Part shown: in pieces, positions 41,245 through 51,386 of the stretch | How positions within the stretch are numbered: position 1 is the stretch's first letter | Layout: each line of letters starts with the position of its first letter | Sequence record: PQ850617.1 | Reading direction: 5' to 3' (one strand) | Length of the DNA stretch: 64,000 bases | DNA from: Escherichia phage ManiMatter_Bas94 | The notes under the pieces: model-generated | Database searches by the model: none | Seen by the model: the letters and a program-made list of their open reading frames with translations, nothing else | What the model was told of the DNA's origin: nothing | Made by a program: the position numbers and the translations under genes

Positions 41245-41448
41245 TTAGTAGAACGAACGAATTTCATCCCACACTTGTTCCTGTTCTTTCCTATAAAAAG
41301 AAAGTTGGGTCTTGAACATCTCCACTGATGATTCAAAGTTTTTAGATTGTGCAGCTTCAACGAAACGTTCATGTCGGTTGATTTTGCACCGTAGCATTAA
41401 ATACTTGGCTTCAAGTCTCCGAAGAGCCTGTCTTTTCTCAAGATTCAC
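41245..41448 (-). CDS. Hypothetical protein
   Basis: 67-aa ORF. Confidence 0.35.
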   Translation of the reverse strand: MNLEKRQALRRLEAKYLMLRCKINRHERFVEAAQSKNFESSVEMFKTQLSFYRKEQEQVWDEIRSFY

Positions 41449-41857
41449 TTTTCAGATACTCTGACCAGTCGCCAGATTCAACCAGAACGTCTTGTTCTTC
41501 GTCGATGTGATAAATCCAAGCGATAACAGTTTCACCTGAGTCCATCTTAACTGGAATCTGAGTGCGTTGATAGAAACTATCTTCAGGGCTACGTTTGTTG
41601 TAACCTTCCAGTCGGTCATATGGACCTTCCAGACCTTCTTTGTCAGTAGCAAACACTTCTACACGAACAGGCTTATTGTTATTGCTGTGTGCGAGAGAGA
41701 TGCTTGGGAAGTAGGAACCACCATAACGGAACAGATCAAAGTTGTCTTCAGTCCAACCTTCACCAATTGACTTAGCACCAGCTCGGTCATTAACTAAATA
41801 GTTAGCTTGACCACGACGAAGAGAACCATAAGTTGCTACGTAAATTACTTCTGACAT
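41438..41857 (-). CDS. Gamma-glutamyl cyclotransferase-like (AIG2/GGCT fold) protein
   Basis: N-terminal VIYVATYGSLRRGQANYL pattern. Confidence 0.5.
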   Translation of the reverse strand: MSEVIYVATYGSLRRGQANYLVNDRAGAKSIGEGWTEDNFDLFRYGGSYFPSISLAHSNNNKPVRVEVFATDKEGLEGPYDRLEGYNKRSPEDSFYQRTQIPVKMDSGETVIAWIYHIDEEQDVLVESGDWSEYLKSES

Positions 41858-41858
41858 T

Positions 41859-42068
41859 TTAAATACCTTTCCAGTCTTTCATGATGTTTTCAATATAAGC
41901 ACACTGTTGATCAGTGGCTCCTGTTACAAACACTTCTAACCCCAACTGCTCGCAGAAGGGATTAAGAATTAGTATTCTGGTTTGTCCATATGAGTGATGC
42001 TCTCGGTAGATAACACACCCAGCATCCCATACAGAATCAATGGCTTTACTTAATCTTTCGTGTTTCAT
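41859..42068 (-). CDS. Hypothetical protein
   Basis: 69-aa ORF. Confidence 0.35.
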   Translation of the reverse strand: MKHERLSKAIDSVWDAGCVIYREHHSYGQTRILILNPFCEQLGLEVFVTGATDQQCAYIENIMKDWKGI

Positions 42069-42121
42069 AAAACCTCCAGTTTATCCGAACTAGCCTCCTC
42101 TTTCGAAGAGGCTAAAGCAGA

Positions 42122-42307
42122 TTACTCTGTAATAAAGATTTTAATCACACCACAGATTACTTCATCATTAAAAGAAGCAACAACTTCTTTATCCTGACAG
42201 AACTCTACTTTACCATTATAAGAGTTGAAGTAGTCAGCGTCAATGTCCATTGCTCGCATTTCACCAGCTGCATTGGTATCTTTAAACAGAACTTTATACT
42301 TATTCAC
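42122..42307 (-). CDS. Hypothetical protein
   Basis: 61-aa ORF. Confidence 0.35.
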   Translation of the reverse strand: MNKYKVLFKDTNAAGEMRAMDIDADYFNSYNGKVEFCQDKEVVASFNDEVICGVIKIFITE

Positions 42308-48841: not shown

Positions 48842-49805
48842 TGTAATACTCCACTAGTTCAGAAAAGAGAGATGAGATTGTGTTACCGATTTCTTCAGGA
48901 TTAAGACCAGAATCTATTCCAGTACGCTGAATTATTCGTGCTGTAAAGTTTTGTACTGTAATGTTTTCCAACTTATTGTCTATTGCTTCACGTTTGTGAC
49001 CATAACAGTTGGACCAGAGTTTTAACCACTCTGACATTGTTTCATACTCATCCGGATCTTGATCTTTAGCACGAGCAAATCTTCGTAAGACATCTGTGTT
49101 GTGGTTACGAACATAACCATTCTCGTTGTCACCAACACCGAAGGGGTTTTGAACCCATACTTGCTTCGTGTATTCATCAGAGTCAACAACCAAAGGAAGG
49201 AATGCTGCTGCTGACATATTGTTGTCAATAACAACAGACGTGCTTTCACTACTCCCATTGGAAGCTCCTCGTTGAGACCACCTACCAAAGAAGTCACGAC
49301 CCAACCCAGCTAACAATAGAGCGATGCCAATGCGTTTACGCTTCAGCCACTCTTCCCTGTCTTCAATTCCTTCTGCTAGGAAATCCATTCCACGATACTG
49401 CCCTTCCAAAATGCTACGGAAGAGCATAAGTCCTGTGAAGATTTGATCTGCTGGATGCTCACGGAGGTTGACAGCTACGCTATTCGCTGAAGTGATTGTG
49501 AATACATCGCGATAGCAAGACATGGAGTTCATAATATCTGCTGTTTCAACCAAGTTCTTTTCAATATAAGATGCATCATGACCGTGAAAAGAGTGAGTCC
49601 AGTAATTCAGCATCTCCAGTTGCAAGTTGATATCACGGTTGAAGCGTCTATAACGCCCCTCTTCCATGATAACTTCGCCATTAATATCGCTTACGCATTG
49701 GCCTTGCATGTAGTTGTGAATACCGAAGCACCCACGACCTAAGAACTTCTGTTCCCCTAAATCTTGTTGAAGATTCAGAGGTACGATCGTTGTGGAGATT
49801 GACAT
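48834..49805 (-). CDS. Hypothetical protein
   Basis: 323-aa ORF. Confidence 0.4.
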   Translation of the reverse strand: MSISTTIVPLNLQQDLGEQKFLGRGCFGIHNYMQGQCVSDINGEVIMEEGRYRRFNRDINLQLEMLNYWTHSFHGHDASYIEKNLVETADIMNSMSCYRDVFTITSANSVAVNLREHPADQIFTGLMLFRSILEGQYRGMDFLAEGIEDREEWLKRKRIGIALLLAGLGRDFFGRWSQRGASNGSSESTSVVIDNNMSAAAFLPLVVDSDEYTKQVWVQNPFGVGDNENGYVRNHNTDVLRRFARAKDQDPDEYETMSEWLKLWSNCYGHKREAIDNKLENITVQNFTARIIQRTGIDSGLNPEEIGNTISSLFSELVEYYND

Positions 49806-49815
49806 AACTAACCTT

Positions 49816-51012
49816 TTATTTTCCTAAAAATAATCCGCTCATAATACCATCCCACTCAGAGGATGGGATCACTGAATACTCCGAACTTTGGTCCAGAGTT
49901 CCACTACTAAATCGCTGAACAATGTTATAGATGTTGAACAGGTCTTTAGCCTCAGTACGGATACCGTAGACTAATTTATCAGATGTTCTTTCATCTTTAG
50001 ATACCCGACGAGCAAAATTAACCAGAAGGTTGTCACATTTAAGCGTTTCTGACCCACTCTCTACCAAATCAGGGTGCATCACAGGCAAGAACATCGAGTT
50101 ATTGACTCGCAACTCTGCTGTTTCGTCATTCTCATAATGAATCCACTTAAAGTCTTCATCACGGAAGTGACCACAACCATCTCTGTACGACTGCTGACGC
50201 CAAGGCACTTGAAATGCTTCAGCGTATTTATCAGCCATGCCGACTGTAAACAGCGACGCTGGGAAGATACAAGCATCCCAATCATTACCAACCAGAGTTG
50301 CTTTAGTTTCCCCCAAGAGGTTAGTGTAAGTGCTAACCATTCGGGAGTAAATGTAAGCCTGAAGAATTGTCCAGCCTTCAATCAACCATTTATGAAGGAA
50401 GGTTTCAACTTGACTCTCTTCGTCTTCGCAATAGAAGGTTCGGTCTAGCATTAAATAGAACAGACAACGATCAGCAGGGATGTTCTCAGTTGCTACACCC
50501 ATAAAACCTTTCTCGTGCCAGCGTAAACAGGAGGGACGATCTTTGTCCACAAATGCTTCCATAGCTTCCAGTACAGCACGAGGTGAGGTTTGGTATTCAG
50601 GGTTTTTACTATTCCAACGATCAATGTTGTTCTTAGGAGGTGTGTCTTCATCTTCATACGAACACCAACTTAAAGCTTCGGATACATGCTCTGCGTCATG
50701 CCAACGTCTAAAACCTAACATCTTCATGTGAGTTCCGGAGTTCCAGATATGCTTGATTTTACACATATCCATCTCTCGGCTTAACAGGAACTCTTCCCCA
50801 TCAGCACTACGAACGTTAGCTTCTTCATGCCACACTCGAACGTGCATATTCCACCCATGAGTTGCCTCATACATATTAGGGTCGAAGTATTCATATTCGT
50901 CGTCATCTTCATCAACGCCACCATTATAGTTGCGAAGCTGAAGGAATCCATAACAAGGAGGGTTAACCGTTAAAACATTACCTTCAGTATCTTCTAATGT
51001 TACTGGAAACAT
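49816..51012 (-). CDS. Hypothetical protein
   Basis: 398-aa ORF. Confidence 0.4.
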   Translation of the reverse strand: MFPVTLEDTEGNVLTVNPPCYGFLQLRNYNGGVDEDDDEYEYFDPNMYEATHGWNMHVRVWHEEANVRSADGEEFLLSREMDMCKIKHIWNSGTHMKMLGFRRWHDAEHVSEALSWCSYEDEDTPPKNNIDRWNSKNPEYQTSPRAVLEAMEAFVDKDRPSCLRWHEKGFMGVATENIPADRCLFYLMLDRTFYCEDEESQVETFLHKWLIEGWTILQAYIYSRMVSTYTNLLGETKATLVGNDWDACIFPASLFTVGMADKYAEAFQVPWRQQSYRDGCGHFRDEDFKWIHYENDETAELRVNNSMFLPVMHPDLVESGSETLKCDNLLVNFARRVSKDERTSDKLVYGIRTEAKDLFNIYNIVQRFSSGTLDQSSEYSVIPSSEWDGIMSGLFLGK

Positions 51013-51023
51013 TATACCAACCT

Positions 51024-51386
51024 CTATTGGTTTTTAATCAACTCAATAGACTTACGGATATAAAGAATATCTCGGAAGTTTCTGTAGTTGTTCATAAATT
51101 GATGCTTCTGGAACTCAGCTTCTTCCAGAGCTTTCTTTGCGTCTGCGTAGTTTTTACGGGCAAGACATACAACCCGCTCTGGTAACATGTTTGCACGATG
51201 GATTAGATACTTGTGAGCTTTCATATTGCTTTGCTCACGAGCAATCTTACCTTTAGCAACTTTGATACCATTTGCAATCCAAGCAAGTTCTTGCTCAAGC
51301 TCATCGTTGGACATTCCACCGAGGTTTGATGCAACCTTGTTCAGAGTTTCAATATTAACGTTGCCCTTAATGGGACGTGTATTCAT
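51024..51386 (-). CDS. Hypothetical protein
   Basis: 120-aa ORF. Confidence 0.4.
   Translation of the reverse strand: MNTRPIKGNVNIETLNKVASNLGGMSNDELEQELAWIANGIKVAKGKIAREQSNMKAHKYLIHRANMLPERVVCLARKNYADAKKALEEAEFQKHQFMNNYRNFRDILYIRKSIELIKNQ

Follow-up and report, generated by a model that had tools for sequence, protein, structure and literature searches.

The 64,000-nucleotide stretch of Escherichia phage ManiMatter_Bas94 analysed here (sequence record PQ850617.1; hereafter the window) carries, at positions 41245–51386, an amidoligase cassette of the type known from phages phiEco32 and RIO-1. This is an already described system, and the window adds no new kind of system to it. We consider it probable that the region is a single early/middle transcription unit built around this cassette, and that its enzymes are soluble, cytoplasmic proteins that build and trim amide bonds. 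Our analysis narrows the problem of what the cassette does: it delimits a five-gene core, points to gamma-glutamyl chemistry through the exchange of two unrelated enzyme families, finds the database names GlmS and RimK unsupported and lowers the priority of DNA as a target.

The cassette and its published relatives

The run is matched in 102 phage records, headed by Escherichia phage AidaStucki_Bas93 (98.8% identity) and followed by Bas92, LAMP and the Kuravirus group (SU10, NJ01, Paul and others). As these are its best matches, we assign the window phage to the phiEco32-like E. coli podophages of the Gordonclarkvirinae. The Bas93 record annotates the same genes over the equivalent stretch, the sole structural difference being p69, a 69-amino-acid (69-aa) open reading frame (ORF) that it lacks. 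Fifteen ORFs, all on the minus strand, occupy the run (Table 1), between the primase/helicase gene (39428–41218) and small early genes, and none of the 15 encoded proteins contains a hydrophobic segment.

The amidoligase survey of Iyer et al. (2009, Mol Biosyst) and the study of Hardies et al. (2013, J Virol) reportedly described the cassette. It has since been called a 'peptidoglycan modification cassette' of seven genes, with reference to Hardies 2013 and Iyer (PMC5498523), is conserved in RIO-1, phiEco32, 7-11, PA11, tf, MR299-2, LUZ24, PaP3 and CW02, and has been proposed to change the cell surface and keep superinfecting phages out (PMC5498523, PMC10580990). For SU10, expression is documented by peptides of the ATP-grasp, glutamine amidotransferase and YtfP proteins (PMC4281155). 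The window holds the same families in the same order and at the same position upstream of the primase/helicase gene: PF14395, PF12224, a class II glutamine amidotransferase (GAT-II) with an N-terminal Cys, an ATP-grasp enzyme and a remover of gamma-glutamyl groups. Nothing essential differs; the window phage is a close relative of phiEco32 itself, after whose system PF14395 is named. What its lineage adds is p398, p323, p120, several small ORFs and a long C-terminal extension of the GAT-II with three Cys clusters.

An earlier note, made from the sequence alone, had described this co-directional ~10-kb run between primase-helicase and early genes as an enzyme cluster for ATP-dependent formation and turnover of amide or gamma-glutamyl-type bonds. 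The 15 minus-strand ORFs agree with the first part of that description, and the family assignments and the literature support the second. Its remark that surveys had noted phage-associated sets of this kind was right but understated, as the cassette is a described and named entity, annotated in near-identical GenBank records.

Three carboxylate–amine ligases and a cyclotransferase

Pfam assignments were judged by bit score against the gathering cutoff of each family. The first core gene encodes a GCS/glutamine synthetase (GS)-like carboxylate–amine ligase of PF14395 (E = 2.2e-8; 34.1 versus 25 bits), whose Pfam name is 'Phage phiEco32-like COOH.NH2 ligase-type 2'. It shares 28–50% identity with homologues in phages Privateer, LAh_9, LUZ24 and TC6, and residues D11, E13, E54, H142, H144, R182, E200 and R202 are invariant in the homologue alignment. 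The third core gene encodes an Amidoligase_2 protein (PF12224; E = 5.8e-8; 33.3 versus 22 bits). Its invariant residues include D50, S52, E58, H95, H97, E119, R130, N175, E186 and R188, which are predicted to bind metal and ATP. Both GS-like ligases retain their acidic, His and Arg motifs.

The ATP-grasp enzyme, searched alone, misses the Pfam gathering scores (Dala_Dala_lig_C, 17.4 versus 24; RimK, 16.5 versus 21). Its assignment holds because it matches PHROG 2599 (E = 1.4e-180), because its Privateer homologue (41% identity) clears the RimK threshold (33.7 versus 21) and because the closest solved structures are RimK/alpha-L-glutamate ligases (E = 8e-4). The ligase proper spans residues 1 to ~270 and is followed by an acidic linker and an 80-aa C-terminal domain; PHROG 20552 covers residues 316–397. 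The cassette is thereby predicted to encode three distinct ATP-dependent carboxylate–amine ligases, namely COOH-NH2_lig type 2, Amidoligase_2 and RimK-like ATP-grasp. To these is added a gamma-glutamyl cyclotransferase (GGCT) of the GGACT family (PF06094; E = 1.6e-17; 64.6 versus 22.8 bits), in which the YGSL and LEGY motifs are present.

The earlier note had named an ATP-grasp ligase, a GAT-II, an amidoligase-like protein, a possible second ligase-like protein and a GGCT-like protein. Profile searches recovered all five, with GGACT, GATase_6, Amidoligase_2 and COOH-NH2_lig above their cutoffs and the ATP-grasp enzyme identified through PHROG and its homologue.

A glutamine amidotransferase that starts at its catalytic cysteine

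The fourth core gene matches GATase_6 over residues 1–200 only (E = 3.2e-15; 56.7 versus 27 bits). The glutamine amidohydrolase domain, of the GAT-II (Ntn) type, extends over residues 1 to ~220 (45569–46228). A program-made ORF list gives the gene as 44198–45889; the reading frame is open up to 46228, and the longer extent proposed in the earlier note is correct. The start codon is an ATT (46228–46226, minus strand) placed directly before the catalytic Cys, so that Cys-Gly-Ile follows the start. A TAG stop lies two codons upstream, and a Shine–Dalgarno-like AGGTGGA motif 7 nt upstream. In 79 GAT-II homologues, the codon preceding the catalytic Cys is ATG in 66, ATT in 11 and TTG in 1. The ATT cases include several unrelated marine lineages, and the pattern suggests that weak or regulated initiation has been selected for repeatedly. 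Some records start the gene internally, and the catalytic Cys is then lost from the annotation.

Cys-Gly directly follows the start codon in 75 homologues, and Cys2, Arg86, Asn111-Gly112 and Asp129 each predominate, being shared by 85% or more of them. By comparison with GlmS and PurF, we take Arg86, Asn111-Gly112 and Asp129 to be the glutamine alpha-carboxylate, oxyanion-hole and alpha-amino ligands, respectively. The protein is predicted to be a working L-glutamine or L-gamma-glutamyl amidohydrolase with a complete binding site. Past residue 220 it is variable and poorly conserved, with three Cys clusters at residues 440–467, 487–515 and 641–671 (44828–44911, 44684–44770 and 44216–44308), to which the 'zinc-ribbon domain' of the earlier note corresponds.

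Product names in Bas93, in many other records and in PHROGs would make these genes unrelated auxiliary metabolic genes, each acting alone: GlmS for amino-sugar synthesis, RimK for ribosomal S6 and a host-type GGCT. As GlmS, the GAT-II protein reaches 44.8 and 38.7 bits where the cutoffs are 381 and 418, with only residues 26–195 matching, and Pfam and NCBIfam searches gave no match to SIS domains. As RimK proper, the ATP-grasp enzyme scores 26 bits against 331 (PRK10446) and 32 against 143 (rimK_fam). Because the scores lie far below the model cutoffs and SIS domains are absent, both names are unsupported at the level of sequence. A single gene order across very distant phages is also unlike unrelated morons. 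We regard this explanation as already contradicted and its probability as negligible.

A five-gene core conserved across podophages

An IMG/VR scan with a profile of the COOH-NH2 ligase found a relative encoded on 520 contigs, of which 80 were fetched. ORFs were called and clustered in 85 loci, essentially all of which contain the COOH-NH2 ligase, as it was the fetching query. Among them one order is almost always kept: COOH-NH2 ligase, the p205 family (~200 aa), amidoligase, GAT-II and ATP-grasp (loci L002–L004, L006 and L009–L088). Eighty-one of the loci contain the amidoligase, 79 the GAT-II and 75 the ATP-grasp enzyme, and genes for primase, helicase and DNA polymerase lie within a few kb downstream of the core.

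The same ordered block is found in Pseudomonas phage LUZ24, as gp16–gp22 adjoining the primase/helicase gene gp24, and in Proteus phage Privateer and Aeromonas phage LAh_9; Pseudomonas phage TC6 carries it rearranged. Geobacillus phage GR1 has a minimal pair of amidoligase and GGCT only, and the isolated phages found with the full core all infect Gram-negative hosts. An amidoligase homologue occurs in 303 phage records. With parts carried by at least 520 viral contigs and ~300 sequenced phages, from marine Zobellviridae to therapeutic E. coli and Pseudomonas phages, the cassette is among the most widespread conserved multi-enzyme sets in podophages.

This synteny, in LUZ24, Privateer, LAh_9, TC6 and ~80 viral contigs, bears out the grouping proposed by the earlier note for the core but not for the whole ~10 kb, of which the conserved core is only a part; p398, p323, p120 and the small ORFs are accessories confined to certain lineages.

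Twenty-one marine variants of the cassette (L023, L030, L031, L034, L042 and others) encode, after the ATP-grasp gene and ~5.5 kb downstream of the ligase gene, a protein of 65–70 aa. A Zn ribbon at its N-terminus and a very acidic tail give it the general outline of the LysW-type amino-group carrier proteins. A relationship to the C-terminus of the GAT-II was tested and rejected, and the protein is unrelated to any protein of the window.

Exchange of two gamma-glutamyl-removing families

In many marine loci, a Peptidase_C26/class I GATase gene (Pfam E = 4.9e-22) lies upstream of the ligase gene; in other loci, a GGCT gene lies downstream of the ATP-grasp gene. Among 65 loci with full coverage, 33 have C26 only, 21 have GGCT only, 2 have both and 9 have neither, an anti-correlation with a Fisher's exact p of 4e-8, uncorrected for shared ancestry. 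Since both families remove gamma-glutamyl groups, the alternation looks like non-orthologous replacement of one step.

Similar pairs are known from pathways in which gamma-glutamylation is transient: BtrJ (ATP-grasp) and BtrG (GGCT-like) for butirosin, PuuA (GS-like) and PuuD (Peptidase C26) for putrescine, and EgtA (GCS-like) and EgtC (GAT-II) for ergothioneine. In each, glutamate is attached to an amine by an ATP-dependent ligase and later taken off by an enzyme of the GGCT, C26 or GAT-II type. The phage cassettes likewise pair ATP-dependent ligase folds with GGCT, C26 or GAT-II, and their GGCT/C26 alternation mirrors these enzyme pairs. Unlike those pathways, the phage set has three ligases and a barrel protein, with no accompanying oxidases, methyltransferases or carrier proteins, and orthology is lacking (EgtC model, 20.9 bits versus a cutoff of 218.65).

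A possible reaction scheme

Family folds, catalytic residues, the fixed gene order and the GGCT/C26 alternation together lead us to regard the cassette, with moderate confidence, as an ATP-driven cytoplasmic system that builds and trims amide bonds and yields a gamma-glutamyl-containing, amide-linked product. The three ligases would convert carboxylates into acyl-phosphates and couple these to amines one step after another, with at least one step using the gamma-carboxyl of L-glutamate. The GAT-II would either pass glutamine-derived ammonia to an acyl-phosphate formed by the adjacent amidoligase, giving an amide, or hydrolyse a gamma-glutamyl amide. In a last step, the GGCT, or C26 in other lineages, would take off a gamma-glutamyl 'handle' as 5-oxoproline or glutamate and leave a free amine. 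By analogy, the logic of this handle may be that of BtrJ/BtrG, PuuA/PuuD and EgtA/EgtC. The protein p205 could serve as a non-catalytic adaptor or as carrier of the growing product, which might be a small compound with amide linkages and glutamate, or a group of this kind attached to a precursor or protein in the cytoplasm. The product would be made from the start of infection; the homologous cassette of phage PSA-HP1 is 'expressed immediately' after infection (PMC7082346). Its identification would add a new metabolite or modification to those made by phages and could partly explain host takeover.

Several points weigh against this scheme. In the literature, we found no experimental substrate, intermediate or product of the cassette (Iyer 2009 and Hardies 2013 being covered through citing papers only). 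Searches of PDB sequences with profiles of the two GS-like ligase families gave nothing meaningful, so that neither has a solved or characterised relative. The sequence of the GAT-II could fit an amidotransferase or a hydrolase equally. The alternation of GGCT and C26 stands without correction for phylogeny, and the nine loci with neither gene nearby indicate that glutamyl removal may not be obligatory. The order and chemistry of the steps, finally, are deduced from family membership only.

Peptidoglycan or protein as a possible target

The published interpretation places the product in the cell wall: the ligases would add or amidate residues on a cytoplasmic stem-peptide precursor, the GAT-II and GGCT would recycle wall peptides, and the altered envelope would block superinfection by other phages. 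Bacterial ATP-grasp and GAT-II/AsnB-type enzymes, such as Ddl, D-aspartate ligase and LtsA/AsnB1, do modify stem peptides, and both the Gram-negative hosts of the isolated full-core carriers found here and the immediate expression in PSA-HP1 would suit such a role. GAT-II, GGCT and C26 enzymes, by contrast, recognise L-glutamine or L-gamma-glutamyl groups, as do the GAT-II site and the GGCT/C26 families of the cassette, and the cell wall holds gamma-D-glutamate. All cassette proteins are predicted to be cytoplasmic, Pfam and NCBIfam searches revealed no gene resembling a Mur ligase, a transpeptidase or a lipid II enzyme, and the tight linkage is to replication genes rather than to lysis or envelope genes. 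The proposal is a guess relayed from Iyer 2009 and Hardies 2013 (PMC10580990, PMC5498523), and we consider it unlikely.

That the ligases build a glutamyl or peptide tag on a protein of host or phage, as in S6 modification by RimK, the PafA/Pup system or tubulin glutamylation, appears somewhat less likely still. The phage ATP-grasp enzyme is closest to RimK: the RimK and MptN/CofF alpha-L-glutamate ligases share its fold and are its nearest solved structures and NCBIfam models. It differs from RimK in its acidic linker and extra C-terminal domain and has no S6-related context, and its score against the RimK equivalog model is the low one given above. Pup ligase belongs to the GS-like ligases, as do two of the cassette enzymes. 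We found no Pup-like protein (Gln/Glu end) and no LysW-like tag or carrier (Zn ribbon and acidic EDWGE-type tail) next to the ligase in the window, and the substrates of GGACT-type enzymes are free gamma-glutamyl amines, not proteins.

In such a tagging system, p205 would be the substrate or a targeting adaptor. It is non-catalytic, lies inside the ligase block and has a near-invariant basic loop, P-x-R-Q-x-K-x-G, in the unmodelled part of its predicted structure; barrel folds of its type are binding modules. The structure model is of moderate quality only, and its matches are generic small barrels. An exhaustive HMMER search returned only 64 small standalone relatives, and Pfam searches with longer p205 homologues revealed no informative fusion. 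Adaptor or substrate, p205 is a candidate for either.

DNA as an unlikely target and restriction resistance

The earlier note had left a small molecule, a protein and a DNA base as targets for the amide-forming enzymes. That range of products is retained, with the DNA base the least likely of the three. The attraction of a DNA product is that an amide-linked group on a base would explain the broad restriction resistance of the Gordonclarkvirinae: the BASEL-2 study observed a remarkable resistance to restriction in these phages without a known pathway of modification, and reports resistance to the EcoRI, EcoRV and EcoKI systems (PMC11990801). The window contains 11 EcoRI, 30 EcoRV and 7 EcoKI sites, none of which are avoided. 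The cassette always adjoins replication genes, and viromes contain amidoligase and GATase genes together with genes for thymidine hypermodification (PMC8989533).

Some thymidine-hypermodification clusters (Lee et al. 2018, 2021) also hold an amidoligase and a GATase (PMC8989533) and lie near replication genes. Unlike here, they have a dUMP hydroxymethylase or TET/JBP, a 5-hmdU DNA kinase and an aGPT-Pplase. In the window and the whole-genome Bas93 annotation, we found no hydroxymethylase, 5-hmdU kinase, TET/JBP, transglycosylase or glycosyltransferase, although not every small ORF was profile-searched; an ordinary ThyX (Thy1, E = 8.8e-44) and a dCTP deaminase are present. In phage tf, a carrier of the same core, virion DNA is cut by EcoRV, RsaI, HpaI, SmaI and HaeIII (PMC3517423). 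Across the whole window, CCWGG occurs 3 times against 73.5 expected, PstI, KpnI, SacI and NcoI sites together 0 times against ~10.6, and GATC 133 times against 238. The strong avoidance of CCWGG, PstI, KpnI, SacI and NcoI sites implies that the DNA is exposed to restriction pressure. DNA hypermodification is therefore, in our judgement, highly improbable. Scarcely more probable is the broader proposal that the cassette, perhaps through p398, p323 or p120, makes the resistance agent of the Gordonclarkvirinae, be it an amide-linked DNA modification or a restriction-enzyme inhibitor that is a small molecule or borne on a protein.

Accessory proteins and layout of the transcription unit

The remaining genes of the run are accessory to the amide-forming core (Table 1). 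Neither p205 nor p323, p398 and p120 has a match in Pfam or NCBIfam, and BLAST and phmmer comparisons of p398, p323, p120 and the small ORFs with distant cassettes found none. The structure model of p398 is confident (pLDDT 89) and its fold has no match in the PDB. A Foldseek search of BFVD links it (E = 1e-6 to 3e-4) to proteins of roughly 300 aa whose genes lie upstream of the ligase genes in phages of Proteus, Cronobacter and Aeromonas.

These proteins have a 'PAD...R' motif in common with p398 and p323, in which it reads IPADRCLFYLMLDR and HPADQIFTGLMLFR, respectively. The strict form of the motif, which p398's own version does not match, occurs in 12 of 2576 ORFs, and the ORF is the next one upstream of the ligase gene in 11 of the 11 cases that could be placed. 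A jointly seeded HMM of the family finds one to three copies in 23 of the 85 loci and recovers p323. A direct comparison of p398 with p323 by hhalign gave no significant match, and other profile–profile comparison was weak. We consider p323 probably a divergent paralogue of p398; this relatedness is provisional because it is based on the shared motif, third-party Foldseek matches and a jointly seeded HMM. Both are regarded as members of a fast-evolving, divergent, phage-only accessory family outside the core.

Within the 85 loci, p120 occurs in 8 kuravirus-like loci only and p74 in 9. The p77 gene follows the GAT-II gene in enteric and Aeromonas lineages, with homologues at the same position in Privateer and LAh_9. 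The C-terminal ends of p77 and p74 are KSGS and KLKGI, respectively. The p69 ORF, which occurs here and in some kuraviruses but not in the closest relative Bas93, is a small indel or moron within the operon.

Just outside the run, a small ORF of 50 aa has its own Shine–Dalgarno-like motif (GAGAGGA) and stands directly after a terminator-like hairpin and directly before p120. It probably opens the cassette transcription unit and encodes its sole membrane-like protein.

Table 1 Features of the cassette region, in order of transcription (positions in the window)
Feature	Position	Strand	Description
Terminator-like hairpin	51568–51585	-	Just upstream of the cassette transcription unit
50-aa hydrophobic small ORF	51389–51541	-	Bas93_0077 in Bas93; just outside 41245–51386; sequence starts MSKLDMKLLAAAVVICALALV
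p120	51024–51386	-	Basic, 120 aa; PHROG 11370 only
p398	49816–51012	-	Acidic accessory, 398 aa; 'PAD...R' motif family
p323	48834–49805	-	323 aa; accessory, candidate p398 paralogue
COOH-NH2 ligase type 2 (core gene 1)	48035–48841	-	Pfam PF14395
p205 (core gene 2)	47408–48025	-	Small beta-barrel protein between the two GS-like ligases
Amidoligase_2 (core gene 3)	46308–47411	-	Pfam PF12224; GS-like carboxylate–amine ligase
GAT-II (core gene 4)	44198–46228	-	GATase_6
p77	43960–44193	-	DUF7195, Pfam PF23825, E = 4.7e-17
p74	43755–43979	-	No family match; kuravirus-like phages only
RimK-like ATP-grasp ligase (core gene 5)	42559–43752	-	PHROG 2599
p82	42304–42552	-	Small lineage-specific ORF; no Pfam match
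p61	42122–42307	-	Small lineage-specific ORF
p69	41859–42068	-	69 aa, between GGCT and p61; no Pfam match
GGACT/AIG2-type gamma-glutamyl cyclotransferase	41438–41857	-	Pfam PF06094
p67	41245–41448	-	Small ORF before the primase/helicase gene; no family match

Neighbouring genes

Three minus-strand genes outside the cassette carry annotations that touch on DNA. The 118-aa 'DNA ligase' (33420–33776) consists solely of an Nlig-Ia NAD+-binding domain (Pfam E = 2.5e-35) and lacks a catalytic ligase core. The 451-aa 'nucleotidyltransferase' beside the dCTP deaminase (37580–38935) has no Pfam or NCBIfam match at E ≤ 0.01; proteins of this type are called class II CCA-adding-like in the SU10 paper (PMC4281155), and the BASEL-2 study speculates that the nucleotidyltransferase acts in DNA modification (PMC11990801). 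The 187-aa 'DNA binding protein' (34973–35536) contains a ferritin/Dps-like domain (Pfam E = 2.8e-7), and a phage Dps-like protein that coats DNA could bear on the reported restriction resistance.

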